A stretch of DNA of 64,000 bases. Source: Methanomassiliicoccaceae archaeon. Lineage in GTDB: Archaea; Thermoplasmatota; Thermoplasmata; Methanomassiliicoccales; Methanomassiliicoccaceae. Of this stretch, positions 31,037 to 57,522 are shown one piece after another. The DNA is taken from positions 119,717 through 183,716 of the forward strand of contig CAVSJV010000013.1 in NCBI GenBank assembly GCA_963728405.1. Reading direction: 5' to 3'. The translations under genes were made by a program, and so were the position numbers. Each line of letters begins with the position of its first letter. Position 1 is the first letter of the stretch. Under the pieces are notes generated by a model that saw only the letters and a program-made list of their open reading frames with translations, did not search any database and had not been told where the DNA came from.

Positions 31037-31109
31037 GGGCAGATAGATCAGCTGGAAGATCGCGACATTCGCAATGTCGAGGCCGCGGGTTCAAATCCCG
31101 CTCTGTCCA
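31037..31109 (+). tRNA. tRNA-Ala(CGC)
   Basis: GGGCAGA/TCTGTCC with G3:U70, CGACA-TT-CGC-AA-TGTCG, TTCAAAT. Confidence 0.97.
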
Positions 31110-31110
31110 C

Positions 31111-31334
31111 TCAAATTCTGGCTTCTTCAATTTGAACCGTTTGCGGTTCATTTCGGATTCTCTGATACTGGGCGTATTTCGCCATCGCGTTGCTCATATC
31201 CTCGAAGTCTAGTCCTAGATACTTGAGCGTCGTACGGGTGTCGGCGTGACCGAAGATCTTCGCGATCTCCTCGATAGGCACACGTGGGCCCGGAACATCA
31301 TACGGCCGCTGGTCCGGCGGAGGTCATGAAAACG
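31111..31334 (-). pseudogene. Tyrosine integrase C-terminal remnant converging on tRNA-Ala
   Basis: RFHDLRRTSGR…(frameshift)…IAKIFGHADTRTTLKYLGLDFEDM; HxxR, H and Y catalytic residues. Confidence 0.88.
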
Positions 31335-31341
31335 CTTAGGG

Positions 31342-32167
31342 CTACAGTTGGCAGTCGCGGCTTTTCCCGTCGTCGCCCACTTCGGATGATCTACCACTGA
31401 TCTCCCGCCCCTTCATCTCACTGAAGAACTTCCCCAATGACTCCCGAAGGACGCGCTGCGGAATTTCTTCAATGCCCCCGCGCGGCAGCTTGCCCAATGG
31501 GAACGGCCCGAACGCCACGCGGATCAAGCGCGTCACCTGCAGGCCCAGATGGGCCATGATATTGCGAACCTCGCGGTTCTTACCTTCGCGGATCGTCACA
31601 ACAAGCCAGTGGCTCGGTCCCTCCTCCTTGCCTTTCTCGATCTCGATCTTGATGGGTTCGTACCGGATGCCCGAAATCGTCACCCCGTTCGCGACCGAGG
31701 CGAGCTTCTCGAGGTCGACATGCCCGCTCACGCTCACTCGGTAGCGCCGCAGCCAGGCGTTTTGCGGCAACTCCAAATGCCGCGCCAATTCCCCATCGTT
31801 CGTCAGAAGCAACAGCCCCTCGGTATTGAAGTCCAAGCGCCCCACGCTCACGACGCGCGGCATCTCGGGAGGCAGCTTCTCGAACACGGTCGGACGTCCC
31901 TGGGGGTCCTTCGCCGTTGTAATGGTGCCCGGCGGTTTGTGATAACGCCACACGCGGGTTTCCTCGGCCGCTTTCAAAGACTCCCCGTCAACCGTGATGA
32001 CAGTTCTTATCCGTGACGTTCAGCGCGGACGAGATCAAAACCTTGCCGTCGACAGCCACACGGCCGTCTGCGATCAGCCTTTCGGCGTCGCGGCGCGAGC
32101 ACACGCCGGCTCGGGCCAGCACTTTAGCGATGCGTTCGCCTTCAAAGGAAGATTCGGTTTTGTGCAT
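31342..32167 (-). CDS. rluB: rRNA pseudouridine synthase RluB-like (S4 + RsuA family), bacterial type, frameshift near 32000
   Basis: GERIAKVLARAGVCSRRDAE, YHKPPG, VGRLDFNTEGLLLLTNDG, EGKNREVR, LIRVAFGP. Confidence 0.9.
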
Positions 32168-32460
32168 CTCGGCCTCGCTTATCTTGCAACTTGCCCCCTT
32201 ATAGCGCATAGATATGGCCTGCAAGCAATCGCGTTTATGTGAGCGTTTCTCTGTCTAATTCCAAGATTGACTCGTAATATTTGTCCTTGTCTTCGACACT
32301 GAGGTGGAGGAATCGTTCAAGTTCGGCCGGGTCTTCCTGCATTAATTTCACATCAATCAACCTATGATGGGTCGAACGATAACTAGCCCTATCCTCCACC
32401 ATAAAACCAGGTATTGGTATGACCGTAGAAAAGATTATTTGCAAAAAAGGTCAAGCGTGG

Positions 32461-32865
32461 CTAGCACAACCGCTCGCCAAGGAAGATCTCCTTGAGCGTC
32501 GCGGCCAACTGCTCCATCTCCTCGACAGTCATGGGCTTGACGAGGTACCAGACCATACCGCTATCCTTGGCTTTGGCCACATCGTCTGGAGAGCTGGAGC
32601 CGGATCTAACGATCAATGGCGTATTCCTGTAGGTGCCGCTCTCCTTTAGTATGTTCATCAAACTATGGCCAGTGATCTTGGGCAAGTTAAGGTCCAAGAG
32701 TATGAGGTCCACGGCATGCTTTGCCTCGATATACTTTGGGGCTTCTTCGCCATCGCTCAGTCATGTAACTCGATAGGCCATTCTAGTTTCATTCAACACT
32801 TCCTCGATGAGATGAACATCGCTCATGTTATCCTCGATTAGAATGATCTGGAGAGGCTCATTCAT
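32461..32865 (-). pseudogene. Response regulator with in-frame TGA at 32763-32761
   Basis: IILIEDN…VT*LSDGEEA (paralog has LTWLSDGEKA)…LLDLNLPK…KPM. Confidence 0.8.
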
Positions 32866-34387
32866 TCAATTCCCCCCCCCGCTTCGGGCAGAGTGAAAAA
32901 GAATGTCGAACCCTTACCTTCCTCGCTTTCGACCCATATCCGACCGCCGTGACGTTCGACGATCTTTTTACTGATGGCCAGTCCGATGCCGGTGCCGGGG
33001 TACTTGTCCCTTGTATGTAGCCGCTGGAACATCTTGAAAATGTTCTCGTGGTACTTCGGATCGATGCCGATGCCGTTGTCCTTGACCGCAATGATCCATC
33101 TATGACCGCGGTGGCGGGCTGACACTTCGACCTTCGGCCCCTCGGTTCCGCGGAACTTTATGGCGTTACTGATGAGGTTCTGCAGCACCTGGGTCATCTG
33201 CGATTCGTCGGCCAGAACGGTCGGCAGCGGTTCGATGCTAACTTGTGCTCCCGCCTCTTGTATGGCCACATGCAGGTTGTTCTTAACCGTCTCGACGACC
33301 TTGTTCATGTCCACGAGAGTGTGCTCCTCGCGCTTGGTTTCGATGCGTGAGAACTGCAGCAGGTCGGCGTTCGATTCGGGGCGGCCAGGTTCTCTTCGTT
33401 CCTTTGCTGCTCGGTGATGTCGATGTTCACACCCCCCCAGCCCATGACCTTGCCTACATCGTCCTTGAGCGGCACCCCTCTCGCAAGGACATAGCGGTAT
33501 TGACCGTCCTTGCCCATGATGTGATGAGTGTAGTTCCAGAAATCTCCCGTTTCAATGGTCTTCTTCCAATCGGAGATAGTTCGCTTGACCGTTTCTGGGT
33601 CAAGAGTGTCGAGCCAACCGAACTTGAGGATATCATCCTCGCTCTTGCCGACGAGTTCGCAGAACGAGGGGCTGATGTAGGTCGCCCGACCTTGGGCGTC
33701 CATTGTCCAGATGCCGAAGGGGATCAGCTCACCGATGGTACGGTACTTGGCCTCGCTCTCGCTCAGCTCCTTGGTGCGCTCTTGCACTTTATTTTCAAGC
33801 TGCTCGTTGGCCTTCTTCAACGCCTCTTCCGCTCTCCTCAGCGCGGTGACATCGGTGAGAATGGACCGGAATCCTTTTCCTGGACCTTTGACCAGATCGC
33901 TCTCGAACTGTACAAGAATCTCGCTTCCGTCGTTCCGATGAATGGTGAAGGTGTTCTGCTGTTCTCCCTCTGAGGCGACCCGTCTGAAGTGGAGGTACAG
34001 CTGCTCTTGGGATCGAGGCGAAATGAATGTCGAAATTGCTTTATTCATCAGACTGGCCCTATTCGTCCTCAGGAGCTTCGATGCTCCTAAGTTGGCCTCT
34101 TTGATCAGAAGGTCTGGAGTCAGCGTGACATAACCAAGCGGAGCGAGGTCGTACAGCTCAAAATACTTGGCCCTGGTGGCCTCCAGCTCTACCTGGATCC
34201 TCTTGAGTTCCTCGTTCTGGATGTTCAGCTCCTCTTGATGGAGGGTGAGATCCTCTATCAGCTTAGAAGCATCTTTCTCTGAAAGCTCTTGAGATGGCCC
34301 CCTCTTTGCCAAGCGCTTCTTGGCCAGCTCCCTGATCTCTTCTCTACCGAGATCTTGCTCGTTCTCCATGGTTGAAACGTTCAACAT
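32862..34387 (-). pseudogene. PAS histidine kinase with internal deletion of the HisKA H-box
   Basis: PAS domains then SNADL joined directly to LQFSRI; intact HATPase. Confidence 0.85.
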
Positions 34388-34421
34388 AATCGACTTTCCT
34401 ATTAATAGATAAATCGGCCTT

Positions 34422-34461
34422 AGCCAGACGATTTCGTGGGCAGTTATCCCGCTCTGTCCAC
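34422..34461 (+). repeat. att-like site F (tRNA-Ala type)
   Basis: AGCCAGA-cgatttc-GTGGGCAGTT-ATCCCG-CTCTGTCCAC; last 16 nt identical to the tRNA-Ala 3' end. Confidence 0.9.
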
Positions 34462-34709
34462 AATTATAATAATTAGTACATATAAATCTTGCATGAACCG
34501 TAAGCCAGTATTCTCCAAACTCATCAACAACCTATAGCCCAAAAGGGGCCTGTTTAGGTGAGATCTATTTGGAAGATGTTCACTCCGCCCCCTCGCCCTA
34601 TCTTTATTTCTGTCCCCGCACTCTCGTAACCAGGGTCCTAGTAAAGGAGGATCATCATCCACATCGAAAGATAATCGAAGCTTGTTGCGACTAAAACTGC
34701 CTCTCCAGG

Positions 34710-35144
34710 CTATCTTGTGCCCTCGCATCGTTTCTTCATGGCCTCGTTCATTTGCTCCAATCCCTTTTGTGTACCACGGATCCATCCTCCCATAATGGGG
34801 ACCAGGATACCGGAAAAAGAGACTCCCTGGGAGAACCGTGCTCTTTTCGGACCGAGAGGTTCGATGGTAAATCTATGTTGACCGTAGACCAGTCCTCTCA
34901 CATAGGTGCTATGGAGCAGGAGCTCACGGTTCTCCTTGAGGCCTGAGACCCTTGTATTAAAGCTCATTTCCTTCCTGCCCGGTATCCTTGCATGGGCCCT
35001 GAGGACATGTCCAGGCTTCGCATCACCGGACAACCCTACGATGAAGGGGTTCCAATCGGAATAGGATGGAAAGTCCAACAGGACGATCCACACCCGCTCA
35101 ACGGGGGCATCGATCTCGATGGTTGCTTTTATTTCCTTCATCAT
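34710..35144 (-). CDS. SRPBCC/polyketide cyclase family protein
   Basis: IEIDAPVERVW…DFPSYSDWNPF…MNEAMKKR. Confidence 0.85.
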   Translation of the reverse strand: MMKEIKATIEIDAPVERVWIVLLDFPSYSDWNPFIVGLSGDAKPGHVLRAHARIPGRKEMSFNTRVSGLKENRELLLHSTYVRGLVYGQHRFTIEPLGPKRARFSQGVSFSGILVPIMGGWIRGTQKGLEQMNEAMKKRCEGTR

Positions 35145-35440
35145 TAGCTTACTGCATTCGTTGTGTATTTATCATTAATAGTAGAGAGAAATCCCCTAAT
35201 GCAATAATTGCCGATCCAGCTGTGCTATCCAACGACCCTGTGAAAGGGTGTAATTTTATCCACTGCCCCCGCACTGATCCTTTGGGCTAACACGGAGAAT
35301 AGAAAAAAGGCCCACCATCATATCCGATGCTACGACGACAGTTCACATCGTCCTCCAAGCACCACATATCCTGGGGCTAAATTGGAGCGATAGGGCCGGA
35401 CCCAAATGCGTCTATCCGCCCCGGTCATAGTTCGATTCAC

Positions 35441-37813
35441 TCACTGTTTGCTAAGCAACATGTGCATCAGATCGTCAGGTTTGACCAAATGGCTCTGATC
35501 GTCACTGCCCACGCTCAGCTCCACCCATTTGATCTTGCCGTTGAATATGGTGTTCTCGGGTTTGTTTCCGAGCACAGTCGTGCCTGATTCGCAACCGATG
35601 TCTAGACCTTCGGTGGCTGAGAAGATCATCGGCTGAGTGACTTCCACCCTTCCCACACCCACCTGCTCACCATCATTATACAGAGTGACGATTCCGCCCT
35701 TGGCTAATCCTCCACCATCGTAAGCGAACTCTGCTCGTACCTGGTGCTCACCCGGTGGGACTGCTTTGGTGGCGTTAATCGTGAACGATTTCACCCCGAA
35801 CAGATTGTAGACGAACTTGGTCGTGCCCTCATTCATCAACAGAACCCAGCCACCTGACTTGCCGCCCTGAGCGACGATCGTCCCCCTGCCCCCTCCTTCG
35901 GGGATGATGATTTGCGCAGTGATCCAGAACGACCTGTTCTTTAGTGTCAGGACCGATGCTTCAGTAATCCGCTTCATTCCCGGGAAGAAGATTTGCTTGT
36001 TGCCTTTGACGAAAGATGGTCGTCCGGCTATCTCTGGGATGAACCTTTCGACGGCGCGGTCGTCCAAGGGGATGACATTATATTTGGTGGCTTCGATCAG
36101 GAACTGGCGCTGTAACTTGTGCAACATCTCCGGATTCTCCTTTGACAGATCGTGCGCCTGAGTATAGTCAGTGTGGCCGTCGTATAGCTCCCAGACATCT
36201 TCGTCGAAAGGTATCTGTTTCGCGCCCGCCTCGAGCTTCCATGGTGTGCGGTGCTTTGTGCAGGCGCTCCATCCCTTGTAATAGATGCCGCGGTTGCCGA
36301 ACATCTCGAAATATTGCACGTCGTGGCGCTCCGGTTCCTCGGGTGTGTTGAAAGAATAAACTATGCTCGTGCCCTCGTAGGGGCTCTGGGTCACCCCATG
36401 CACCAAGATCGGTTCAGGAATGCCGGCAGCCTCGAGGATGGTGGGAGCGATGTCGATGACATGGCAGAACTGCGAGCGCTGGCCGCCCTTCTCTTTTATA
36501 TACTTAGGCCAGTGAACTATCGTACCGTTGCGCGTCCCACCCCAGTGCGAGGCCACCTGTTTGGTCCATTGATAAGGTGAGTCCATCGCCCAGGCCCAGC
36601 CCACCGCGTAATGGTTATATGCCTCTGTACTTCCCCACTTCTCCAAGTTTGCTATCAAGAACTCGGGGGTCTCGATGACCTCTCCCATGCCGTTCAGGGG
36701 GATGAACTCGTTGAATGTGCCCTTTATCGTGCCTTCGGCGGAGGCACCATTGTCGCCGGTGATGAGAACGATCAGCGTGTTGTCCAGGATGCCGATTTCC
36801 TTGATTGCATCGATGATTCTGCCCACATGATGGTCGGTGTGGGACAGGAAGCCGGCGTAGGTCTCCATCTGCCGCTCCAGCACGGGTTTGAGCCCCTCGG
36901 GCATGTCGTCCCAGGCCGGTATCTCCTCTGGCCGCTTGGTCAGCTCAGCCTCTGGTGGGATGATACTAAGCTCCTTCTGCCGCTCAAAGGTGATCTCCCT
37001 CTGCTTGTCCCATCCGTGGCTGAATTTGCCCCTATATTTCTCGATCCATTCCTTTGGTACATGGTGCGGGGCGTGTGTGGCGCCGGGGGCGAAATAGATG
37101 AAGAACGGCCGATCAGGGGCGAGCGACTTTTGCGTTCGCATCCATAGGATGGTATGATCGGCCAGGTCCTCGGTCAGGTGGTAGCCTTCTTCAGGGGTCT
37201 TGGGCTGTTCGATGGGGGTCGTGCCTTCATAGAGCGAGGGATACCACTGATTGTCCTCTCCGCCAACGAAGCCGTAGAAGTACTCGAACCCGGAGCCGGT
37301 GGGCCACATACCGAAGGGGCCGACCTGGCTGTTTTGGAATACCGGTACCTCATGGCACTTGCCGAACTGAGCCGTGTTATAGCCGTTCAGTTTTAGCGTC
37401 TCGGCGAGCGGCGCCTTATTGTTGGGCCGGATGGAGGTCATTCCGGGTGCCGACGTTGCCACCTCGGTGACGCTTCCCATGTTGACCGAATGGTGGTTCC
37501 GGCCGGTGAGCAGGGCCGCTCGGGTCGGCGCGCATAGGGCGGTGGTGTGGAAGCGTTCGTAACGCAGGCCACCCCTGGCCAGCTTCTCGAAATTTGGCGT
37601 TTCACAGGGACCCCCGAAGGCGCTGGAAGAGCCGAAGCCCGCGTCATCTAACAAGACCACGAGGACATTTGGTGCTCCGGCAGGAGGGCTTAACGGCGTA
37701 ATGGGTGGAAATTTGTTGTCAGGGTCCTTCGCGTCATAGGTGGTCAGGTGATGGCTGACCTGGTCAGGGATTGGCAGGACAACGCGGGATTGCTCATGGG
37801 ATCGATCAGACAT
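35441..37813 (-). CDS. Arylsulfatase (Cys-type, formylglycine-dependent)
   Basis: LLDDAG, LCAPTRAALLTGR (CxPxR), GKCH, HAPH, GDNG. Confidence 0.93.
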   Translation of the reverse strand: MSDRSHEQSRVVLPIPDQVSHHLTTYDAKDPDNKFPPITPLSPPAGAPNVLVVLLDDAGFGSSSAFGGPCETPNFEKLARGGLRYERFHTTALCAPTRAALLTGRNHHSVNMGSVTEVATSAPGMTSIRPNNKAPLAETLKLNGYNTAQFGKCHEVPVFQNSQVGPFGMWPTGSGFEYFYGFVGGEDNQWYPSLYEGTTPIEQPKTPEEGYHLTEDLADHTILWMRTQKSLAPDRPFFIYFAPGATHAPHHVPKEWIEKYRGKFSHGWDKQREITFERQKELSIIPPEAELTKRPEEIPAWDDMPEGLKPVLERQMETYAGFLSHTDHHVGRIIDAIKEIGILDNTLIVLITGDNGASAEGTIKGTFNEFIPLNGMGEVIETPEFLIANLEKWGSTEAYNHYAVGWAWAMDSPYQWTKQVASHWGGTRNGTIVHWPKYIKEKGGQRSQFCHVIDIAPTILEAAGIPEPILVHGVTQSPYEGTSIVYSFNTPEEPERHDVQYFEMFGNRGIYYKGWSACTKHRTPWKLEAGAKQIPFDEDVWELYDGHTDYTQAHDLSKENPEMLHKLQRQFLIEATKYNVIPLDDRAVERFIPEIAGRPSFVKGNKQIFFPGMKRITEASVLTLKNRSFWITAQIIIPEGGGRGTIVAQGGKSGGWVLLMNEGTTKFVYNLFGVKSFTINATKAVPPGEHQVRAEFAYDGGGLAKGGIVTLYNDGEQVGVGRVEVTQPMIFSATEGLDIGCESGTTVLGNKPENTIFNGKIKWVELSVGSDDQSHLVKPDDLMHMLLSKQ

Positions 37814-38102
37814 TTCTTCTCCCTCGATCTATCGATGAAATTCATGAAACCACATATGACTTAAGACTTTCATAGGGATAGCAAAAAAGCCAGATGAGAA
37901 TGATTCAATCTGATAGGATGAACAGTACAGTGTGGTCCACCTAAGACTCAACGCCGTGGCACATATCCAAGCGAACAGGATCACTTGGCCGAGACGAGAA
38001 CATCCTTTTTCTCACAATCATCCTTCTCATTTTACCTAATGGACAGTCTGCTCCCCTTTGAACCTCTCTGAGAAGTGTTTACGGATTTTAGGAATTGAGC
38101 AT

Positions 38103-38155
38103 AGCCTACTATTCTTCGGGTCCAAATCTCTGCGGGCCCACTAATTCTTCTGGCT
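38103..38155 (+). repeat. att-like site G (tRNA-Ile type)
   Basis: TCGGGTCCAA-ATCTCT-GCGGGCCCAC-taattct-TCTGGCT; inverted homolog of site B. Confidence 0.85.
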
Positions 38156-38325
38156 TCACTCGTTTTTCCCAATAAATTTAGGAAACGCCTTTACCTCGCG
38201 AACAATGTCGACATTACCGTCTCCTGGAAGGCCTGGGGGCTCGCTTTACTCTTCCTTCCGATTATATCCAGAAAGTCATCCCTCTTCTCTTGGACCTTGG
38301 CGAGACGATCAGGCTGAGCTCAGGA
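38156..38325 (-). pseudogene. Integrase extreme C-terminal remnant, homolog of 1375-1524
   Basis: LAKVQEKRDDFLDII…PQAFQE versus LAKVQEKRDDYLDLI…PQAFQE. Confidence 0.85.
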
Positions 38326-39346: not shown

Positions 39347-39397
39347 TGGCCAGAAATAAAATGGCGACCAGTAATCAGAAGGAAGGGGACAAAAAAG

Positions 39398-41383: not shown

Positions 41384-41682
41384 AGAGCTACCATGCTCAA
41401 CACATATCATGGACCAGCGAACAGCAGAGAGAATAAGAAAAACATGCCAACGTGCTGCTTACTTTGGAGTTACTAAACTGGCCTATCCATCTGAAACGAA
41501 GGTTAATGGGGCAGTATAATACTAACCTCCACGGGAAATATTTTAAAGTTTAGCTTTAACATCAACAATGATCATACTAGCCCTCGCTCGTCTATCGTAT
41601 GGGGTCATTCTCCCACGAACCTTGACATTGCGGTGGAATTGGTTTAATTCTTGGTCTCTGATTTGGGCATTTATCGCATAAT

Positions 41683-43771: not shown

Positions 43772-43772
43772 T

Positions 43773-46848: not shown

Positions 46849-46888
46849 AGCCACTCTGTTTCGTAGGCAGAAATCCAGCTCTGTCCAC
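46849..46888 (+). repeat. att-like site I (tRNA-Ala type)
   Basis: AGCCACT-ctgtttc-GTAGGCAGAA-ATCCAG-CTCTGTCCAC. Confidence 0.85.
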
Positions 46889-47109
46889 TTTTCATCGCAA
46901 TAATAAATGATGACTGTTCATGGAACAGAAATATAGTATCATCTCAAGGCGAGATTAATTTACTATTCCCTTGGGGGCATTTTTAAAGCTATTCTGACCA
47001 TTCTCGCCATTCCCTAGAGTCATAAACAAACGAGAGCCGACCGACCGCAATTATTAGGCTTGTAGCCCATATTGTATAAGCAAATGTTAGCCGACACCAG
47101 GGATTTTTG

Positions 47110-48023
47110 ATGATAGAAACTGAAAATCTAACCAAAAAGTTTGGTGATTTGGTCGCGGTCGATAATCTCACGCTAAACGTTAAAGAAGGAGAGATCTTCG
47201 GCCTTCTTGGTCCGAATGGCGCGGGCAAAACGACAGCTGTCAGGATGCTTTGTTGTCTGATCTCCCCGACAAGTGGCAATGCAAGAGTGGCTGGCTACGA
47301 CACCAACAAACAGGTGGACTCACTTAAGATCAGGAAAATCATCGGGTTCGTCCCCGACAATGTCGGCCTCTATGACGAACTGAGCGCCTATGAGAACCTG
47401 GACTTCTACGGAAAGCTCTATGATTGCACGGAAGCGCAAAGGAAGGAGAACATCGAGCGCTTCCTCAAAATGTTGGGGCTGTGGGACAAGAAGAATGTCG
47501 CTGCTGGTACTTTCTCGAAAGGGATGAAGCAGAAGCTCGCGCTAGCCCGCGCCCTCATTCACGACCCTCAGATATTGTTCATGGATGAGCCGACAGCGAA
47601 CCTAGATCCCGAGGCAGCCAAGACGGTGCAGGGACTTCATTCTGGAATCTGAAAAAGGAGAAGAAGACCATCTTTCTCAACACACACAACCTCGATGAGG
47701 CGCAAAGGATCTGCGACAGGATCGGGATACTAAACACGAGATTGAGAGCAATTGGAAAGCCAGAAGAATTAGAGCGTTCGGTGAGTGGCAGGAAGACCAT
47801 CATTCTGCTAGAACAGGTCAACGATGCCATATTGGCATCTTTGAAAGGACTCTCACTCGGAGACAACGCTATCGAGGGGAACAAGCTATCGATCGATGTG
47901 AAAGACCCGGAAAAAGAGAATCCCGTTATCCTCAACGAGATATTCAAAGCAGGAGGGCGTGTTCAATCGGTGAATGTGGTCGGTTCAACGCTGGAGGAAG
48001 CTTATCTGAAGCTTGTGAGGTGA
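47110..48023 (+). CDS. ABC exporter ATP-binding protein, frameshift near 47625
   Basis: GPNGAGKTT, FSKGMKQK, MDEPT, THNLDEA. Confidence 0.92.
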
Positions 48024-48775
48024 CCGAAATGAGGCTTTCGAAATCATGGGTCATCGCTTCGAAGGATTTCAAGACCTTCAGGAAGAAGAGGAACATAATC
48101 TATTCGACCATCCTCGTCCCCCTAATTGTCTCATTCCTTTTTCCGATCGTAATACAGTTAGCAGGGCAGAAAAATGGGGGGAGCGGGATTTCGGCGGCGG
48201 CGCTTACTACACTTCTGCCAGCTTTTACTTTCTTCTATCTCATCCTCGCAGGGTTCATTCCGACGGCCATCGCATCATACAGCATCGTCGGAGAGAAAGT
48301 GCAGAAATGCTTGGAACCGCTCCTAGCCACTCCGACGACAGACAGCGAGATCTTGCTCGGAAAGGGGATCTCAGCGTTTCTGCCGCCCGTAGTGGCCATC
48401 CTGGGAAGTTCTGTGATCTTCATGGTCCTCGTGGATTTGATAACACAGGGCACATTGGGCTACTACTTTTTTCCGAACTTGAATTCCGCCATTGTCTTTT
48501 TCCTCATGGTTCCTCTTGCCACCATTATGAGCGTCGAATGGAACGTTTTCATATCGGCGAGAGTAAGCGATGTGCGGGTCGCGCAGCAGATTGGGATGCT
48601 GTTGGTCATCCCCTTCGCAGGGATTTATGTTGCTGGTGAACTTGACATAATAGACCTTGGCGTCACAGACAACCTCCTCATCATCGCGGCCATACTTCTA
48701 GTAATTGACGTTCTATTCCTTTACGTCGCCAGAGCCACATTCCGCAGAGATAAGATATTGACGAAATGGAGGTAG
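48020..48775 (+). CDS. ABC-2 type permease
   Basis: SIVGEKVQKCLEPLLATP…ILLGK. Confidence 0.9.
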   Translation: MTEMRLSKSWVIASKDFKTFRKKRNIIYSTILVPLIVSFLFPIVIQLAGQKNGGSGISAAALTTLLPAFTFFYLILAGFIPTAIASYSIVGEKVQKCLEPLLATPTTDSEILLGKGISAFLPPVVAILGSSVIFMVLVDLITQGTLGYYFFPNLNSAIVFFLMVPLATIMSVEWNVFISARVSDVRVAQQIGMLLVIPFAGIYVAGELDIIDLGVTDNLLIIAAILLVIDVLFLYVARATFRRDKILTKWR

Positions 48776-48928
48776 ATGGCATGTCCCGCAATTCACTTTG
48801 GTTCCTAAGCCACACGGGTATCGGCCCTAATGCCATATCTAAGCTAGATCACGGGGGGGAAGTCATCAGAATCATGCTATCTGAAATGATTAGCTAGAAT
48901 AGGGATATGTGGTGAAAACACGAACTCC

Positions 48929-49114
48929 ATGAAATTGGGACTCATACTAATGGGATGCATCATATCAACATTAGGCGTCATCCTGCTTTTGGTACGGGGT
49001 TTCTCAGCGGCTCCTCTTGGAGTGCTCGTGGCAGGCATAATGATACTCATTGCTGGGTTCTTTGGAGGAATACTGAAAAATGGAAGCACCAACAGTGAGG
49101 AGCTCTGCTCGTAA
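48929..49114 (+). CDS. Small 2-TM hypothetical protein
   Basis: Hydrophobic ORF with GGTGA RBS; stop adjacent to next start. Confidence 0.5.
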   Translation: MKLGLILMGCIISTLGVILLLVRGFSAAPLGVLVAGIMILIAGFFGGILKNGSTNSEELCS

Positions 49115-49843
49115 ATGAACCTGGAACATTCGTTCACTATCGCAGAAAAAGAGTGGAAGGTATACCGCAGAACGAAGATCATCTTTGCTTACACCGTTGC
49201 ACTTCCTCTTTTCTTCTCACTCCTTTTTTCAGCCTATGTCAGCAGCTTTGCAGCATATGGGATCCCATCAACATATTCACTAGGCCTCACAATGCTCACT
49301 TTCTTTTTTGTTGTTCTAATAGCTTTCCTACCCAGTTCGATCGCGGCGTATAGCATAATCGGCGAGAAAGTTGAGAAGAGCTTAGAGCCGTTGCTCGCCA
49401 CCCCTACAACCGACAGTGAAATTCTCCTTGGAAAAAGCATCGCTGCTTTCGTGCCGCCTATTCTCGCGACTTGGGCAGGAGCTTCAATTTTCATGGTTGT
49501 AACGGATTACTTGACATACAGTGGTTTATCCTTCTATTATTTTCCCAATTGGGGTGCTGGAGTAATTCTGTTGCTCCTCGCTCCTCTTGCCGCAATTTTT
49601 GGTATTGAAATAGCAGTAATCGCATCATCACGTCTGAACGATGTTCGGGCCGTAAACCAGATCGCGACCCTCACGTTTGCTCCATTCATGCTCGTCTTCG
49701 TTGCGGGATCGATCCAAGCCATTACGCTCAGTATCGACAACCTTCTGATTTTCTGTGGTATTCTGCTGACCATTGATGTGGCTCTGTTCTACATGAGCAG
49801 AGCTACTTTCAAACGAGAGGAGATACTAACGAAGTGGAAATGA
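49115..49843 (+). CDS. ABC-2 type permease (paralog)
   Basis: SIIGEKVEKSLEPLLATP…ILLGK. Confidence 0.9.
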   Translation: MNLEHSFTIAEKEWKVYRRTKIIFAYTVALPLFFSLLFSAYVSSFAAYGIPSTYSLGLTMLTFFFVVLIAFLPSSIAAYSIIGEKVEKSLEPLLATPTTDSEILLGKSIAAFVPPILATWAGASIFMVVTDYLTYSGLSFYYFPNWGAGVILLLLAPLAAIFGIEIAVIASSRLNDVRAVNQIATLTFAPFMLVFVAGSIQAITLSIDNLLIFCGILLTIDVALFYMSRATFKREEILTKWK

Positions 49844-49996
49844 AAGTGAATATGCCAAATGATCAATTTTTGTTAACTCGGAACAGTATGTACCATATTT
49901 TTAAGAGAAATAGAAGAATAGATTTTTCCTGGGCCAGGGGACATTTAAAACGGCAGAACGGGAGAACAGTGTCATTTATAAGGTAGAACGTAGAGG

Positions 49997-50097
49997 AGGT
50001 TTTACCGAGCAAGCGGCTGAACTCGCTTCTTACTGCTATTGACCGAGATAATGAAACATCTGGATGGCCTGAGATTCAAATTCGGGCAGACCCACCA
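49997..50097 (+). repeat. 101-bp direct repeat copy 1, tRNA intron/3'-half-like
   Basis: Differs from 57422-57522 at two positions; ends TTCAAAT-TCGGG-CAGACCC-ACCA. Confidence 0.92.
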
Positions 50098-50400
50098 CAT
50101 ATATAAATAAATCAAATAATAGTGTTCGATCCTGGTCGTAGAAAAGTGCAATTCAAAATCTTACTGCTGCCTAGAAAGATCTCACTGAGAGCATTATGAA
50201 CTACCTAATGGCTCTGAACGCACCTGGAACGCATTGAACAGGCCTATCGCTACCGGCCTGCCCACAGACATCATTTGTGAGCCGAGAAGACTCCTGGATG
50301 TGCCATCACTTTAGTCATACCCGCGATATGCCTACGTTCAGAATCGGAATACCTGCCAGAGAATAAAGGATAAATGAAATCTTGTTTCCAAGAATAAAGG

Positions 50401-50820
50401 ATGAAGTTTTGGGAGCGCGCGATAAGGAAGGGATCGATCTATGCCATTTTGGCCCTTATCCTCTTCATAATCGTCCTGGTGGTTATCGGACTGGTCCTGA
50501 GCCTCGCCCAGACCCTGCTCGATGGACATTACAACCTCGACAAGGGTGAGATTCTCAACTTCTTTGGGGAGCTCCTCCTTGTGGTCATCGGGGTGGAGCT
50601 CTTCGACACTATCAAGGGCCTCCTCAGCGAGTCGCGGGTAAGGGCAGAGTTGGTGCTCCTCGTGGCGGTGACCGCGGTGTCCAGGGAGCTCATCGTCTTT
50701 AACTACGAGAGCGCGGACGGTATGATGATGGTGGGTCTGGGCGTGCTCATCGCTGCTGTCGCCGTTGGGTACTATCTGATCAGCAAGGCACTCTTGAAGG
50801 AGAGCCCTTCGGGCCAGTGA
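50401..50820 (+). CDS. PsiE-family membrane protein
   Basis: LLLVVIGVELFDTI, LVAVTAVSRELI. Confidence 0.85.
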   Translation: MKFWERAIRKGSIYAILALILFIIVLVVIGLVLSLAQTLLDGHYNLDKGEILNFFGELLLVVIGVELFDTIKGLLSESRVRAELVLLVAVTAVSRELIVFNYESADGMMMVGLGVLIAAVAVGYYLISKALLKESPSGQ

Positions 50821-50823
50821 CCT

Positions 50824-51510
50824 ATGAGCAGAGGATACGAGCAATGGGGCCTTCGCTCCACCTCCACCCTGGCCATCCCGGCGGTCGATCCCATCATTGC
50901 CACCACAACCTCAAAGAGGATCGATTCCGGCGCGATCGACAGAGATATCAGCATCAGGAACAGGCATGAGAATTGGCCGAGGCGTGGGATAAACTGTCGG
51001 AATATCCCCTGCCCCTGTGGTCCCGGTCTGGCTGCGGCGATGTTACCGATCATGTGGTTGAAGAGCTGCGAGAAGGTGCTGATGGCGATCACGCTGATCA
51101 CGTTCACGAACAGGACCAGAACCACAATGATCCCCCCAGTGATCTATATGTCATAGTGTGGGGTGCGATAAACGTGGATGGCTCTGCTCAGCCGATGAGG
51201 GAGAGCCCTCTTCCTGCCCTAGCCCACTCCATCCTCGAAACGCCCAAGAATGGCGGTCATCAGGATGCTCACCGTGGCTAGCAACCCGTCGATGGAGATA
51301 AGCAGGACGGCAAGCAGGTTCCCTGTACTGCTCATGGCCAATGAAAGGGGAGATGGACGAGGACAGGTTGGGGGCCCCCACCAGGCCGACGGCAATGTAG
51401 AATATGACCGAGATGACGATGGACCGCATGATGGCCCCGATTTTGATCGCCGTGGCGTCCAGTAGGCCGAGGGAGTGTTTCATCCCAGGGGCGGCCTTCA
51501 ACTTGGGCAC
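50824..51510 (-). pseudogene. APC-family amino acid permease remnants
   Basis: MKHSLGLLDATAIKIGAI joined to IVISVIFYIAVGLVGA; large internal deletions. Confidence 0.55.
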
Positions 51511-51590
51511 TGCGCATAGTTAGCCCATTATCCCGAGTGTCAACATATCCACTGTCCAGTGGGCCGGTCCGCCGGGGGCCGCCAAGATCA

Positions 51591-52163
51591 CTAGTGCGCT
51601 ATTTGGTCAATGGCGACCGTGGCGGCCAGTACGATGATGTCATCCTGCCCTGGCTGGATGTCCACGGTATAGGTATCCCGCATCCGCAGCCACCGCTTGC
51701 TGACCTCGGCGACTTCCCGCCCGTTCTGTTCGAACTTGTACTCATGGTCGGTGATGTTGCCCTTTATCTCCATGTCCGCGCCGGGGAGATTGAGGGTGAA
51801 CCTTTCTCGGACCGGGGTGATCATCGCCTTCTTGACCGTTGCATATTGTACCCCGTTCCTCTCGATGGCCATGGTGTCCTTTATCGCCGCCTTCCTTTCC
51901 TGGATCGTGGCGAGCTCCCGGCCCATCATGTCCTCGAACCTGAGGGTGTTGCGCACCCGGAGGGCCTTCCCATCGACCTTGAAGACCCGCTGGCCTGCCC
52001 CGTTCTGGATGAAGAAGTCGTCCCCTATCGTGAACATCTGCTCCCTCATCACGTACCGCTGGGGGCCGCTAACGGCCGCTCCCGGTTGGGCCATAGGCTG
52101 ACCGGCCTGTGGTGCTGCTTTCTCCCCCCTTGCCTCCTGCCTAACTTCCCTTCGTCTCAGCAT
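51591..52163 (-). CDS. LURP-one/scramblase (Tubby C-like) protein
   Basis: TIGDDFFIQN, KVDGK, AEVSKRWLRMRDTY. Confidence 0.88.
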   Translation of the reverse strand: MLRRREVRQEARGEKAAPQAGQPMAQPGAAVSGPQRYVMREQMFTIGDDFFIQNGAGQRVFKVDGKALRVRNTLRFEDMMGRELATIQERKAAIKDTMAIERNGVQYATVKKAMITPVRERFTLNLPGADMEIKGNITDHEYKFEQNGREVAEVSKRWLRMRDTYTVDIQPGQDDIIVLAATVAIDQIAH

Positions 52164-52319
52164 GTCAATATCTCCTGACCGATTATGCTCACGGCATAGA
52201 CGTCCATCTGGACAGTACATAATGCTTCCTTTTTCGTTTCCACCATTGACATAAGAAAGGGTAAAAGGACAAAGGGGGGGGCCACACTGATCTGCAAACA
52301 CATGTGAGATATGGTTCAG

Positions 52320-52960
52320 CACGGATCGTGGCTACACTTCCTTTCCTTGCCGTTCGCCAGATCATCGTCCTCTTGAACAGCCCCCCTAGGATCATTGACA
52401 CCGATATTGAGATGACGAGCCCGACCGGACACATCGCGATGTTCCGGATCTAAGTGCTCCGACCTCTCCTGCCAGCAATATGGCTGACAGAAGTCTCCCA
52501 GGATCAGTGATAACCGCCCCTTCGATGAAGAGTGCAAAGATGGCGACGGGCACCCCGGGGAAGATCAAGCTCAAGGGTAAGCCCAGCATTGTGCAGGAGA
52601 ACAGCGTGGGGAATATGGGTCGCACAGGAACCCGCTCCAGTTATAGATTCCACGGTGCCTCCGTTGATCACGGTCAGGAGTGCAGATACATTTGGGTCAG
52701 TCCAACGGGGAAAGAAAAGACCAGGACCCCTTCCGGAGTGGTACACCGGTTGTTCATCAAGTGCTCGTTCTTCCAGTGAGGTCATCGAGGAAGGTATAGG
52801 GCCCAAACCAGATTATGGTGAAGATGACCGCCACCAAGCCGATGAGGGCGATCATCCAGATCCTGGGAAGTTGCCCTAAGGCATCCTCTCGATCACATCA
52901 GGAGTGGGGCCCTGTCCCTACTAGGAACGTTTTCGGAGATCGTCTCTCATTGTCCCATGT
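52320..52960 (-). pseudogene. Degenerate membrane-protein remnant, probably a ClC chloride channel
   Basis: PIFPTLFSCTMLGL…FPGVP resembles the ClC GGPIFP helix; multiple stops and frameshifts. Confidence 0.45.
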
Positions 52961-52994
52961 CCCTGGTTAAGGTAACTGCCCTCCCGATGGGACC

Positions 52995-54885
52995 TCACCT
53001 TTGACCCGTGGTGTTGACCACCATACGCCCTCCCGCCTCCTGGGGTCCAGAGGGGGCTTGACGCTCTACGTTCGCCCGGACCCATTCTCCAAGTTCTACC
53101 TTGCCGATGCCTCCGAAGTAGGCGAAGTTGACCGCAGCGTGTATGACTCCCAGATGGGAGAAGGCCTGCGGGAAGTTGCCGATATGCTCCCCCGTCTCCG
53201 GGTCAAGCTCCTCAGCGAACAGCCCCAGGGGAGTGGCCTTGGCCAACAGATTGTCGTAGATCTTGCGAGCCTCCTCCACCCGTCCGGCCAGGATCAAGGC
53301 ACTGACGAGCCAGAAGGTACATAATGTGAAGGTCGCCTCCTTCCCGCCCACGCCCACTGGAGCGTCCATATATCGGTAGCAAAGGCCGTTGACGACCAGA
53401 TGCTCCATCGTCGCATCGATGGTCGAGAGCATGCGCGGGTCCTTTCCATCAATGAAGCCCATGATGGGGAGCATCAGATTGACCGCGTCCAGATTCTCGT
53501 CCTCGAACGACTGTTTGAACGCGTTCAGCTTGGTGCTCCACCCCTTGGTCATGATCTCATTGCGGATGATATCCTTGGTCTCCCGCCACCGCTGGAGGTC
53601 GCCTTCCAGGTTCATGGCCTCGAACATCTGGATCCCTCGGTCGAGCGCCAACCACAGCATCGCCTTCCCGTAGACGAAGTTGCGATTGCCTCCCCGCACC
53701 TCCCAGATACCCGCGTCAGGCTGCTGCCAGTTATCGCATATCCAATCGAGGACCGCGCGTATCCTCTTTCCGCCATCCGGAGGAGTGAACAGGCCTGACC
53801 GCCATGCAAAGTATCCCGCTCCCATCAGCTCGCCGTACACATCGAGCTGTATCTGGTTGGCCGCCTCGTTCCGATGCGGACCGGCCTGGAATCGCGGTAC
53901 CCTCTGAGATGGTCCAGGGTTTCCTCCTTGGTCTGCCCCTCCGGGACGATAGGGTAGAGGATCTGTACGCTTCAGGTTTGACAGTGTTGAATACCCATTT
54001 GGCATATCTTTCGACAAAGTCAGGGTAACCAGCTAGGACCAGGCTGAGCAATGTGTACGAGCCATCCCGTAGCCAGGTGAAGCGATAATCCCAGTTCATC
54101 TCGCCACCGATCGTCTCGGGAAGAGATGTGGTCGGCGCGGCCACGATCGCTCCCGAAGGCGGGTAGGTCATCAACTGAAGGGTCAAGGCGCTGCGGACCA
54201 CCGTTTCGCGGTAAGGGCCCTGGAGGGTGCACTTGTTGGCCCAGCCCCTCCAGTAGCTCATGGTGGATTGCAACGCGGCGGAGATGGAGGCCAGCGGGCT
54301 CTTGTCCATGTCGTTGGCTAAGGAGAAGTAGAACTGTTCTCCCGGACGGACCACCAAGGTCTGGGACAGGGACATATCGCTTTCATCTATAAGCCATCCC
54401 TGAGGCCCGGTGATCACGAACTTTTCAATCAATGCCTCGCTCCCACCCACATTGAGTGTGGGCGGGTCGCGGGCGTAGTTCGGCCGGGGCCTGCAGGTGC
54501 TCTTCATCACCACAGTTGCCGTCAGGCCTCTCACAATCCTGATGAGCTTTCCCGGCGGGCCACCCTCCACATCCTGCTCCGCCCAGGTCATGTCCATGAA
54601 ATCCAGTAGTGCCACCTTTCCCTGAGAACATTCGAAGACCGTCTCCAGGATGTTGGTGTCCTTGAGGTATCGGTGACGGCTCTTAAAATCACATGTCGGC
54701 TGGATGACCCAGTTGCCACCTTTGTCGGGATCCAGTATTCCAGCGAATATGGATGGGGAATCGAAACGAGGCCAACACAACCAATCGATCGATCCCACGC
54801 TGTTAATGAGCGCAGCCGCGTGTCTGTTGCCGATGAGACCGTAATCCTCAATCGGCCAATAACCATCCAACGGTCCAGAAATCAA
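52995..54885 (-). CDS. Glycoside hydrolase family 15 (glucoamylase/trehalase-like), frameshifted
   Basis: IEDYGLIG, PTTSLPE, NWDYRFTWLRD, QLDVYGE, GIWEVR, GNFPQAFSH. Confidence 0.92.
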
Positions 54886-55169
54886 TACAAACGCCTCCTA
54901 GACGATCTATAGGTCAATTTTTCACCCTCCCCTGATCTCTCGATTCTGATCGTTTAGCTGAGCTGTACTTAGGGTGAGGCTAGGTTCCCAAGCATCTCTA
55001 TGTTCGATCCTCATTCTCCCCAATAATGGAGTTATGAAGGAGGTGCTGATGATTTCGCCATCGATTGGCCCTGGGGGCCTTCAGCAGCTTCCTCAGCACA
55101 TAAACTACAGTTTGCTATGGATTTAAACAATTATCGGTCAAAGATGACCCGCCAACGATATCCTCGCCC

Positions 55170-55649
55170 TCAGGACTTAGCTTTCGATCCGCTGCCGGTC
55201 GTGGCCTTACCGGATGGCTTTTTATCTAGTGGCGGTAGCACAGCGGTGAACGGACCAATGAAGGCGAAAACGATGAACGAAATATGCGCCATACCATGGG
55301 TCTGGGTTTCCGGCATGAAAGTCGTCAGGATGGCCGATCCGATGACTGTAGTTCCTATCGAAGATCCAGGGTTAGAAACACACCTCGATACCCCCGATAG
55401 CTCTCCCTGGTCCTTCTCTGGGAAGCTGGACTGCACGACATGTTGACCGATGAGGTAACAAGCCGACGGGGCTAGGGAGGAAAAAGACCTCGGACCTGAG
55501 GGCGATGCCAGAGAATCATAAAAAAAGAAGTTAACCATATCGGCTGTGATGAGGCCGAAAGCTGCACTAAATATCTCTATTATCATCACGCCCTCATATT
55601 CCCGATCCTTCATGCGCGGTTCGAGACTCGCCCGCCCTGGGGAGACCAA
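55170..55649 (-). pseudogene. MFS transporter C-terminal remnant (paralog of adjacent gene)
   Basis: VVQSSFPEKDQGELSGVSR versus VVQSAFPEKDQVEISGLSR. Confidence 0.75.
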
Positions 55650-55712
55650 ACCCGGGCATGGCCAGATCCTCTTCGATCACCATGATGGCACTTTCTCGAC
55701 CATTTCCCATGT

Positions 55713-57179
55713 TCAGGACCTATCTTTACCTACTCCTGATCCTCCCTTTGACGAATCTGTAACGACACGAGGAATAAGGATTGCCGCGATCAGGCCGACG
55801 ATCGAAACGAGGATGATCGCGATGAGCGCAAACCCATAGGTCTGGGTCTCCGGGAGAATCGTCGTAATCAGTATCGATCCTGCAACCGCTGTCCCGAAGG
55901 AAGAGCCCAGGTTCGACATGCTCCTCGATAGGCCAGAGATCTCAACCTGGTCTTTCTCTGGAAACGCCGATTGGACGACATTAACGGAGGATGTGAGCAT
56001 GGTCCCGATCCCCAGCCCCATCAGGAAGAGACCTGGAACGAAATACCACACGCTGGCAGTGGCTGCACCCGATGCGAGGTATGGCAGCAATATCACCAGG
56101 ATAATACCGACAGTGGTCAGAACGAAGCCGATGCGGATGAGCCTCCTCTGAGTGGTTCTCGTAGCCAGCTTCCTCGCTCTCGTGCCTGTCAGCAGTATGC
56201 CGATCGTTGCAGGTGTAACTATCAGGCCAGCCGAAACCGCACTGAACCCGCGAACGGTTTGGAAGAACACAGAGATCACATAGAAGGCCCCTTGAAGTAC
56301 CATCCATTGGACAAACTGTGTCACCAGCCCGAGGTTAGAGGTGCGGTTACGGAATATGTGGGTCGATAGGAGCGGTGACTTCCCCTTTCTCTCCGCGGAC
56401 CGGATGTGCAGGAAGAAGAGGCCAATAATGATCACGCCTATCGCAACAAGTATCCAGACCGTCGCTGAGAACCATCCATAGGTTCCCGTTGCGAGGATAC
56501 CGAATACCACAAAGAATAGTCCCGATGCCGAGAGTATGGTTCCAATAATATCGAGCTTGGGCTTGGTACACTGTACGCCAGGATCGGAGATCCGGCGGGC
56601 CAGGACGAAGATCAGCAAAACGATTAGGGCCTGTAGGATGAAGGAAGCTCTCCAGCTGATCGCGGTAGTCAAGAAGCCGCCAACTAGCGGGCCGAGTGCA
56701 GCTCCGATCCCCCCCGCGGCGCTGATCCTCCAAAGGCTTTCGCGCGCGATTCCGTACCAGTGTAGTTCACTGTGGCCAAGATATAGACCGGCGGGATCAA
56801 GAGGGCCGATCCTACACCTTGCATAATCGAATAACCGATGTATAGGATGCCTATGCCAGGTGCCAATGCCCCCACCAGCGCACCCAAGCCGTAAACGATG
56901 AGCCCGATTCGGAAAGTGAACTTGCGGCCCCAGATGTCGGTCAGCTTGCTGCCGGGGATGATCAAGGCGGCCATGGTGAGCGTGAAAAGAGTAATGGCTA
57001 TCTGGACGCCGTGCACAGTCCGTGCCCAGGTCACTGGCAATACTGTTGACCGCCACGTTTCATATTTGAGCCGGCGTAGCTACACACGAACTGAGCCAGC
57101 ACCAGAGGAAAAAGGATCGACCCTAGAAGGGCCGCCCTCTTTGAGTTGGCGCTCCTCACCGTCGACGCCTCCTAGGCAT
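55713..57179 (-). CDS. MFS (DHA2-like) transporter, frameshifted
   Basis: GSKLTDIWGRK, AALGPLVGG, many TM segments across frames. Confidence 0.85.
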
Positions 57180-57421
57180 TGAATCAACGTTATTGGTGGA
57201 GGTTTATATCAGTATCTACTATGATAAAGTGCAACCTTGGTCGTTTGGTGAGAGAAAAACCCCTTCAATCCGGGCATAACACCTAATGGGGCCATTTGCC
57301 CATAAACAGTAGGAACAGTGACAATTATCCTGTTAAGTTCCTGTTCTGTTTTGCCAGAATATTGACGGAAACGGGAGAACAGGAGAGTACTACTTTTTCA
57401 AAGAATAAAGAAAGAAGGAAT

Positions 57422-57522
57422 AGGTTTTACCGAGCAAGCGGCTGAACTCGCTTCTTACTGCTATTGACCGAGATAATGAAACATCTGGATGGCCCGAGAT
57501 TCAAATTCGGGCAGACCCGCCA
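57422..57522 (+). repeat. 101-bp direct repeat copy 2
   Basis: See 49997-50097; ends CAGACCC-GCCA. Confidence 0.92.

Follow-up and report, generated by a model that had tools for sequence, protein, structure and literature searches.

The palindromic sites that recur between cargo genes downstream of a tRNA-Ala(CGC) gene in a Methanomassiliicoccaceae methanogen are probably the attachment (att) sites of integrase-carrying elements that insert at tRNA genes and then decay. The sites lie in a window of 64,000 nucleotides (G000:C13:119717-183716, G000 being the window's own assembly and C-numbers its contigs; coordinates without a contig are those of the window), and cutting 31111-57522 at the att-type sites yields six blocks. 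We put the probability that this stretch is a tRNA-anchored island, formed by serial integration of such elements with subsequent deletion and rearrangement, at about three in four. On this reading, the stretch is a genomic island of a familiar sort rather than a novel machinery for gene capture. The initial annotation, made from the letters alone, had proposed tyrosine-recombinase sites on tRNA 3' ends that cut a tRNA-anchored island into cargo blocks. Both proposals held up; the annotation's picture of an integron- or tycheposon-like platform of non-autonomous cassettes fared less well, as set out below.

Repeated copies of the tRNA-Ala 3' end

The att core is the last 18 nt of tRNA-Ala(CGC), AAATCCCGCTCTGTCCAC. 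The 3' end of this tRNA recurs three times on the plus strand (sites 1 to 3) and once on the minus strand (site 1218; Table 1), so that the recurrence first noticed at 34422, 41683 and 46849, and at 1217 on the minus strand, is confirmed by sequence and by repeat search. A 26-mer consensus with up to three mismatches finds two matches in the window against 0.00 expected from 100 shuffles, and the other two copies, which carry more changes or a 1-nt deletion, were recovered by the repeat search. Sites 1, 2 and 3 match the 18-mer at 16, 15 and 17 positions, and three of the four Ala-type cores are mutated. The copies follow the layout AGCCAGA-N7-GTGGGCAG(A/T)(A/T)-ATCCCG-CTCTGTCCAC, in which GTGGGCAG, the inner left arm, is a mirror image of the 3' acceptor strand and is similar to the tRNA's 5' strand, GGGCAGA; just as tRNA-Ala has its G3:U70 pair, the inner left arm holds a G opposite a T. 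The outer inverted pair that had been described around this core stands on its left side, where all four copies have an arm (AGCCAGA, ATCCAGA, AGCCACT or GGCCAGA), but not on its right, where TCTGGCT occurs only beside tRNA-Ala (31117-31123) and at site 1218. The proposed arm-6 bp-arm core is likewise valid in part: since the inner left arm lacks palindromy in most other Ala-type sites, this layout characterizes a sub-family only. Site 1 is an attR-type junction in which the P arm of an element meets the core.

Could the palindromes instead be structural signals in RNA or DNA, serving minihelix processing, termination or Xer/dif-type resolution? Their inner part is similar to the acceptor/T-arm minihelix of tRNA-Ala, the arm-6 bp-arm layout is similar to dif, and site 1218 folds as single-stranded DNA with a z score of -2.29, but sites 1 to 3 give only -1.79, -1.14 and +0.32, and an Rfam scan of the window returns three tRNAs and no further RNA family. 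Nor is the inner left arm conserved among other Ala-type sites. Xer/dif relies on a single chromosomal site and the host's Xer recombinase, whereas here many copies are spread over at least eight contigs and are tied to integrase gene ends in G000, in relatives and on free elements. We therefore consider a structural role extremely improbable.

Intact elements in relatives and on free contigs

The same architecture is found with full-length integrases in other species of the Methanomassiliicoccaceae and Methanomassiliicoccales, which are the relatives compared throughout. In G005, G015 and G009 (L009, L010, L016) a PF00589 integrase of 330-349 aa lies directly against tRNA-Ala and reads into it. 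Its open reading frame (ORF) ends ..SGQSGI*; these codons are the tRNA-Ala 3' end in reverse complement and put the stop codon in the T-loop. Beside the integrase lies a 750-aa protein with a Prim-Pol domain (PF09250) in G005, or a protein of 592-654 aa without a Pfam match in G009 and G015, and 6.65, 11.8 and 10 kb away in G005, G015 and G009, respectively, stands attR, a partial tRNA copy preceded by an arm of the AGCCAG type (in G005, ATCCAG). The block of identity between attL and attR spans 18-19 bp in all four pairs measured. The cargo of the G009 element consists of an ABC uptake system (FecCD permease, ATPase and binding protein) and a methyltransferase. Across the Methanomassiliicoccales, 15 of 30 loci of this integrase family have their integrase end no more than 200 bp from tRNA-Ala (8) or tRNA-Pro (7), and in two further loci a tRNA 3' end is recognizable by eye. 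In most of these loci CTGGCT, or a variant differing by one base, follows 5-9 nt beyond the tRNA, and AGCCAG lies 30-32 nt ahead of the stop codon in most loci where it was detected (13 of 22 examined, including some duplicates). The codons over AGCCAG read Ser-Gln in 10 loci, Glu-Ala-Arg in two and Glu-Pro-Asp in one; the motif thus occurs in all three reading frames, indicating that it is conserved as DNA and not as protein.

A complete two-armed attP is also present beside a full integrase, with no tRNA gene, at four loci (L027, L029, L024 and L034). The unintegrated IMG/VR contig L062 (7835 bp) encodes an MCM helicase, a large terminase subunit and a family-2 integrase and also has a complete two-armed attP, a gene content from which it follows that some autonomous relatives are probably tailed archaeal viruses. 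On a second IMG/VR contig, L063, a palindromic Ala(CGC) attP of the form GTGGACAC-AAATCCCG-CTCTGTCCAC adjoins a full integrase. Because two-armed sites adjoin full integrases on free contigs, the site first noticed in the window corresponds to the attP or attR of autonomous elements. The palindromic Ala site was found in 7 of the order's 201 genomes, and a reversed control gave no match; of the seven sites in other genomes, two are followed by CTGGCT or CTGGCC and two have a neighbouring integrase fragment, and the palindromic site in relatives is a junction between two elements. A tblastn search with the integrase gave no match in a phage collection and only bacterial matches of 26-34% identity among plasmids.

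Integrase remnants in the window

No intact integrase lies in the window, as had been noted: the sole PF00589 match scores 18.3 bits, under the 27.1-bit cut-off. What is left are C-terminal fragments. The minus strand beside tRNA-Ala translates as ...GHADTRTTLKYLGLDFEDM...IEEARI*, the C-terminus of a tyrosine integrase, and this fragment, which reads HDLRRT...GHADTRTTLKYLG...EARI*, is 62-67% identical to six full-length relatives by tblastn. The outer arm TCTGGCT (AGCCAGA on the minus strand) forms its codons E-A-R. A second fragment, at 44087, is up to 61% identical to seven integrases (tblastn, E 5e-20) and is fused straight to a Prim-Pol fragment at 44290, showing that an internal deletion took place. 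A third belongs to an inverted paralogy, since the integrase stub and Ile-type site at 1368-1560 reappear at 38120-38311 with 82-87% identity. Integrase C-terminal fragments are thus present in three of the six blocks: beside tRNA-Ala in block 1, next to an Ile-type arm at the opening of block 3, and together with the Prim-Pol remnant in block 4.

That all fragments are C-terminal, and that site 1218 abuts one of them, had raised the suspicion of an SSV-type integrase split by integration. We rejected this, as the integrase genes of relatives are whole, stub lengths vary from ~10 to ~121 aa, and the core overlaps only the last six codons, which the identity block restores; no N-terminal integrase fragments were found at the attR sides. 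A shared deletion point near the HxLRR box, suggested by the closeness of the junctions at 31328, 44290 and 1270, was also discarded: shorter and longer stubs occur, so we read the clustering as chance and detection limits.

Elsewhere in the assembly, no intact family-2 (Ala/Ile-type) integrase was found; a near full-length copy on C7 is spread over three frames, and C12 has a copy cut short where the contig stops. A different family, family 1, whose sites are marked by a reversed CTGGCT-type arm, has apparently intact genes: they lie at C13:1920-3077, at tRNA-Gly(GCC), and at C18:19024-20214, at an Ala(TGC)-type site, with frames of 386 and 397 aa ending ..LAGYG* and ..NAGYV*, and a third, near full-length copy lies at C4:277868-278899. 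Genome-wide, 41 partial tRNA 3' copies lie outside tRNA genes at up to two mismatches, several of them probably chance matches. An AGCCAG-type arm stands upstream of 12 of the 41, compared with 7.2% of 20,000 random positions, and the armed copies are concentrated in the window, at 268-279 kb of C4, at 20-25 kb of C18 and on the short contigs C10-C12.

Sites of several tRNA types and a second array

Other tRNA specificities are represented in the same array. The Ile-type sites reported at 1525 and 38103 were recovered by repeat search and sequence. The supposed third-tRNA site at 1852 is real and is built on AAATCCCGCTCGGCCCA, a tRNA 3' end that recurs at C11:5405, C12:11378 and C18:30893 and that belongs to none of the 35 tRNA genes ARAGORN finds in the assembly; its possible counterpart at 45085 was not confirmed and resembles a site only weakly. 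The two 101-bp repeats that had been noted are also real: they are 98% alike, and each ends exactly at a tRNA-Pro(TGG) 3' end, the tRNA-Pro gene itself being located on C5. Sites on either side of the 7-31 kb core differ in orientation: all are minus to its left and plus to its right.

The region C5:217000-226000 forms a second array at tRNA-Pro(TGG), with partial copies at 221588, 220127 and 218458 and no integrase gene detected. Intact genes for a GH15 protein (633 aa) and an MFS transporter (455 aa) lie there between tRNA-Pro and the first Pro-type copy. Their counterparts in the window are 87% and 95% identical in nucleotide sequence and are split, GH15 over three frames and MFS over two. 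On the right, likeness of the window copy to C5 extends 8 bp beyond the core, and at Pro-type site 2 likeness to both site 1 and the C5 copy ceases at the core end. The Pro-type segment has the look of a duplicate of part of the C5 array. Bases from an integrase gene end start the right flanks of tRNA-Pro, C5:220127, C5:221588 and Pro-type site 2 (57505); the last begins ATCCAGT, the remnant of a family-1 integrase 3' end. None were found on the right flanks of Pro-type site 1 (50080) and C5:218458. A comparable tRNA-Pro array in G003 has five partial copies in 15 kb, three followed by ATATCCAG and one by a degenerate version of it, and two integrase fragments, beside tRNA-Pro and the first site. 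ATATCCAG is an integrase 3' remnant, and it opens most right flanks on C5 and in G003.

Two short contigs repeat parts of the tRNA-Ile island. C11 (10913 bp) is a 97.1% collinear copy of window positions -3645 to 7216 whose end coincides exactly with the tRNA-Ile 3' end; C12, a rearranged variant (88-98%), lacks 3.08 kb beside the Ile-type site, the matching boundary on C13 being without a site. Either the sample contains strain variants, or C11 and C12 are true duplications. It could be argued from these contigs, from the Pro-type sites that lie inside an Ala array even though the tRNA-Pro gene belongs to C5, and from the state of the assembly (an 18-contig draft with 93.75% completeness and 4.07% contamination) that the block order is partly an artefact, the reads of co-occurring strains having been joined at short att repeats. 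We regard this as very unlikely. The shared repeats, at 40-101 bp, are below the usual read length, mixed-type arrays are present on C4 and C12 too, and the 5-13% divergence of the window's GH15-MFS copy from that on C5, together with its frameshifts, marks it as a separate locus.

Origin of the array

How could such an array have come about? In this element family the integrase gene is the last one ahead of attP, with a frame ending within the att core, and AGCCAG 30-32 nt ahead of the stop and an inverted AGCCAG across the core together form the dyad of ~54 bp first noticed. We propose that the integrase would exchange strands within the 18-19 bp common to attP and the tRNA 3' end, an integration that would rebuild the tRNA and leave attR, a partial copy, at the element's far end, and each newcomer would push older elements outward. 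Deletions could not enter the tRNA or its core, and for this reason integrase 3' stubs, att scars and cargo would persist while the remaining backbone would be lost. The anatomy of the sites, the integrase and Prim-Pol remnants, the intact relatives, the free attP forms and the decay of genes and cores are observed; the order of these events is our reconstruction. The mixing of Ala, Ile and Pro types would, in the same reconstruction, result from inversion between two oppositely oriented islands, anchored at tRNA-Ala and tRNA-Ile(GAT), and from movement or duplication of composite array segments; the opposite orientations of the sites on the left and on the right, and the inverted stub paralogue, fit inversions between two islands.

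Several observations weigh against a history of serial integration and decay. In three blocks (34462-38102, 46889-50097 and 50098-57522) tblastn detected no integrase remnant at the tRNA-proximal end, and TCTGGCT is missing from the right flanks of all three plus-strand Ala sites, that is, from three of the four recurrences. Since Ala-, Ile- and Pro-type sites stand within one array, serial integration at a single tRNA is insufficient to explain it. The left boundary of the GH15-MFS copy (53094) is not at any site, so that only its right boundary is at a core. Block 1 is not simply an element: the rluB gene, which lies between the tRNA and site 1, is conserved in relatives. This bacterial-type RluB/RsuA gene is the sole copy in G000, is matched by homologues in 12 or more of the 30 listed relatives, and in G014 and G015 likewise stands downstream of tRNA-Ala with its relative orientation unchanged, for which reasons it is probably native flank and not cargo. 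Finally, the draft assembly, with 18 contigs and an estimated contamination of 4%, is the sole basis of the block order.

These points bear on a scenario closer to the initial annotation, in which integrase-less blocks with att sites are shuffled as cassettes by a recombinase acting in trans, or, in a variant resembling cis-mobilizable elements, in cis. It would account for the three blocks without an integrase remnant, for the perfect 16-nt core of site 1, for the occurrence of an AGCCAG arm at sites of different tRNA types, and for the behaviour of the GH15-MFS genes, a 4-kb integrase-free block at the C5 tRNA-Pro that recurs in the window with its right edge exactly at a core and whose two genes lie on opposite sides of a Pro-type site in G003; the intact family-1 integrases on C13 and C18 could supply the enzyme. 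Against it stand the integrase remnants that three of the six blocks carry themselves, the integrase-gene end bases to the right of tRNA-Pro, C5:220127, C5:221588 and 57505, the failure to find an intact family-2 integrase in the assembly, degenerate cores at three of four Ala sites, the left edge of the duplicated block away from any site, single-strand folding no better than shuffles at three of four sites, and the composition of the blocks, which hold several genes on both strands and many pseudogenes. We consider the cassette scenario unlikely; it keeps some room because three blocks lack remnants and because an integrase-less block recurs with one edge at a core. In particular, non-autonomous cassettes stacked in trans, as first proposed, find no support given the integrase remnants, the autonomous elements, the mutating cores and the broken genes. 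The opposite outcome, that the blocks are decayed self-integrating elements, which the annotation had named as fatal to its proposal, applies to part of the array, with three blocks showing no remnant. Blocks 34462-38102 and 46889-50097 may have moved in trans or in cis, and integrase-less blocks could be mobilised in trans.

It is tempting to speculate further that the symmetric 54-bp attP (AGCCAG arm, acceptor-stem mimic, 6-bp spacer, tRNA 3' end, CTGGCT arm) is a self-contained recombination module that integrases of several tRNA specificities share, by which decayed, integrase-less blocks could still be excised, exchanged among the tRNA-Ala, -Ile and -Pro islands and re-inserted by any related element that arrives. 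We think this rather unlikely. If it were true, mixed-type arrays would constitute an archaeal platform for gene capture and shuffling, and not a mere graveyard. Under the preferred history of serial integration and decay, a caution follows for annotation: palindromic sites found between blocks of cargo can be what is left of the 3' ends of integrase genes that have since disappeared.

Comparison with known systems

The integron-like part of the proposed platform is not supported, the right arm of the site being an integrase gene end, while a tycheposon-like build fits. Integrons consist of an intI-type integrase with an attI head and of mostly single, co-oriented, promoterless ORF cassettes that end in attC, a site that acts as a folded single strand in the form of a stable imperfect hairpin. 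The window shares with them the tyrosine recombinase, imperfect palindromes between cargo units and a one-ended array. In contrast to integrons, it has no intI/attI/Pc head, its array being headed by a tRNA and a ~70-aa integrase C-terminal stub; its blocks hold several genes on both strands and not single-ORF cassettes; and its sites derive from tRNA and integrase gene ends, with remnants of the units' own integrases present.

Tycheposons of Prochlorococcus carry cargo, encode a tyrosine recombinase and sit between a full tRNA and a partial copy; newcomers push older elements into the island, and these islands contain fragmented integrases and scattered extra partial tRNAs (bioRxiv 10.1101/2020.12.28.424599). 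The island in the window likewise has tandem elements whose neighbours are parted only by a partial tRNA, with scattered integrase fragments, and the G009 relative carries nutrient-uptake cargo. A recombinase between a full and a partial tRNA is present in G005, G015 and G009, and on C7 of G000 with a frameshifted integrase, whereas the window retains remnants only. The host domain and the integrase lineage differ from those of tycheposons.

A second parallel is offered by streptococcal integrative and conjugative elements, integrative and mobilizable elements and cis-mobilizable elements, for which one article describes integration at tRNA 3' ends, loss of integration genes with attL and attR kept, and arrival of a next element to give tandem composites (PMC5704250). 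The window resembles arrays of cis-mobilizable elements in its partial tRNA repeats, integrase stubs and cargo, and 31111-34461 has the expected form, with only an integrase stub left and a core that matches at 16 of 16 positions, the other sites being degenerate. It differs from them in its archaeal host, in the lack of conjugation genes, in the presence of three tRNA types in one array, and in autonomous relatives that have Prim-Pol or MCM replication genes and, in one case, a terminase.

Among archaeal systems, a 2021 review of archaeal tyrosine recombinases states that the genes of type II (pNOB8-type) integrases stay whole after tRNA integration and that trapped elements decay (PMC8371274), and another article describes arrays formed by archaeal tyrosine-recombinase elements through re-use of one site (PMC6563490). 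Like type II integrases, the full ORFs of 330-349 aa abut tRNA-Ala in three relatives. Unlike them, the ORF ends inside the core and attP carries a symmetric AGCCAG outer pair, and the 18-19 bp of att identity contrast with the 40-60 bp that the review quotes for several archaeal families (PMC8371274). Particular to the present family are AGCCAG arms that make attP symmetric and an ORF whose end falls within the core. The name Methanomassiliicoccales has 0 occurrences in the review (PMC8371274), and we found no published description of these elements in this order in the parts of the literature available to us, supplementary lists not being covered. The integrase/attP pair therefore appears to be undescribed for this order. 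It is compact, with a ~340-aa integrase and a ~54-bp site aimed at the last 18-19 nt of tRNA-Ala, and could become a site-specific integration tool in this group. We know of no genetic systems for the Methanomassiliicoccales.

Features of the window and cargo of the blocks

The coordinates of the features discussed are collected in Table 1. The blocks are 3.2-7.4 kb in size with two to six genes on both strands, and their gene content as initially read was reproduced by Pfam. G+C falls to 0.44-0.49 at 38-40 kb and 45-50 kb, compared with 0.55 contig-wide.

Table 1. Features of the window: tRNA genes, att-type sites, integrase and replication-gene remnants, and cargo.
Feature	Position	Strand	Details
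tRNA-Ile(GAT)	7216-7291	-	anchor of second, oppositely oriented island (ARAGORN, Rfam)
tRNA-Ser	13772-13859	+	ARAGORN, Rfam
tRNA-Ala(CGC)	31037-31110	+	array anchor, attL/attB (ARAGORN; Rfam 66.7 bits)
Ala-type site 1218	1218-1269	-	both outer arms; in tRNA-Ile island; one C missing from spacer
Ala-type site 1	34422-34461	+	AGCCAGA-N7-GTGGGCAGTT-ATCCCG-CTCTGTCCAC; 16-nt core identical to tRNA (16/16)
Ala-type site 2	41681-41720	+	degenerate: ATCCAGA...GTGGGCATAG-ATCCCG-CACTGTCCAT; 15/18
Ala-type site 3	46849-46888	+	AGCCACT...GTAGGCAGAA-ATCCAG-CTCTGTCCAC; one change within proposed spacer
Ile-type site	1525-1579	-	both outer arms; 26-nt core identical to tRNA-Ile 3' end (7214-7239)
Ile-type site	38103-38155	+	degenerate left arm AGCCTA, tRNA-Ile 3' core (1 mismatch), N7, TCTGGCT
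Third-type site	1853-1891		tRNA 3' end AAATCCCGCTCGGCCCA
Pro-type site 1	49997-50097	+	83-nt element arm and 18-nt tRNA-Pro(TGG) 3' core
Pro-type site 2	57422-57522	+	right flank starts ATCCAGT
Integrase C-terminal fragments	1051-1216 and 1225-1524		either side of Ala-type site 1218 (tblastn, ORFs)
Integrase 3' remnant	~7161-7210		next to tRNA-Ile
Family-2 integrase C-terminal fragment	31114-31328	-	~aa 271-348; one frameshift (translation, tblastn)
Integrase C-terminal fragment	38164-38310	-	49 aa aligned, 53% identity (tblastn); reads into Ile-type site
Integrase C-terminal fragment	44087-44290	-	~aa 246-333 of ~350; weak PF00589 match
Prim-Pol protein fragment	44290-44520	-	aa 404-484 of 750-aa G005 protein; 35% identity, E 5e-9 (tblastn)
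Block 1	31111-34461		integrase stub, rluB, response regulator, kinase; last three broken
rluB-type pseudouridine synthase	31342-32240	-	PF00849; S4 and PseudoU_synth_2; frameshift near 32000, between S4 and catalytic parts
Response regulator, then PAS histidine kinase	32300-34387	-	internal TGA in regulator; kinase split by frameshift (Pfam, translation)
SRPBCC protein and 790-aa sulfatase	34710-37813	-	block 2 cargo (Pfam); tblastn for integrase negative
PAS-HisKA-HATPase kinase (intact), response regulator, kinase C-terminal fragment	41720-44095	-	Pfam
ABC-2 type exporter	47107-49843	+	block 5 cargo; 181-aa ATPase ORF and two permeases; no integrase remnant detected
GH15 glucoamylase-like gene and MFS transporter	52995-57056	-	block 6 (Pfam)

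The cargo indicates that this Methanomassiliicoccaceae methanogen gathers flexible genes at tRNA hot spots, among them a sulfatase, a glycoside hydrolase, transporters and many two-component sensors. The frameshift in rluB is either a sequencing error or the mark of a recent pseudogene. In a synteny comparison for gain or loss of blocks, the corresponding regions of relatives, which are different species, were poorly collinear with the window. The sulfatase of block 2 (35441-37813) is 77% identical to one on G001:C3, and it lies 13.8 kb from a LOR-domain gene (51591-52322) in the window, whereas at G001:C3:5854-10663 (L018) the two genes are 1.7 kb apart in the same order and orientation. No att site within three mismatches of eight tRNA tails was found in this G001 region, and its other genes map elsewhere in G000.

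The kinase and regulator at 41720-44095 are paralogues of the pairs at 32300-34387 and 5225-6900. Such PAS kinase/regulator paralogues, 65-79% identical in nucleotide sequence, stand beside tRNA genes or att-type sites, and further loci lie at C17:390042-391203, C12:6154-7249 and C18:22327-23009. Nine of 41 kinase loci and four of 15 regulator loci are less than 3 kb from an att-type site, compared with 5.2% of random positions, and these elements seem to favour two-component systems as cargo. Alongside its integrase and Prim-Pol remnants, block 4 encodes a 374-aa protein (45134-46258) with a PGF-CTERM motif, an archaeal surface anchor, at an E value of 0.001 that lies just above the cut-off.

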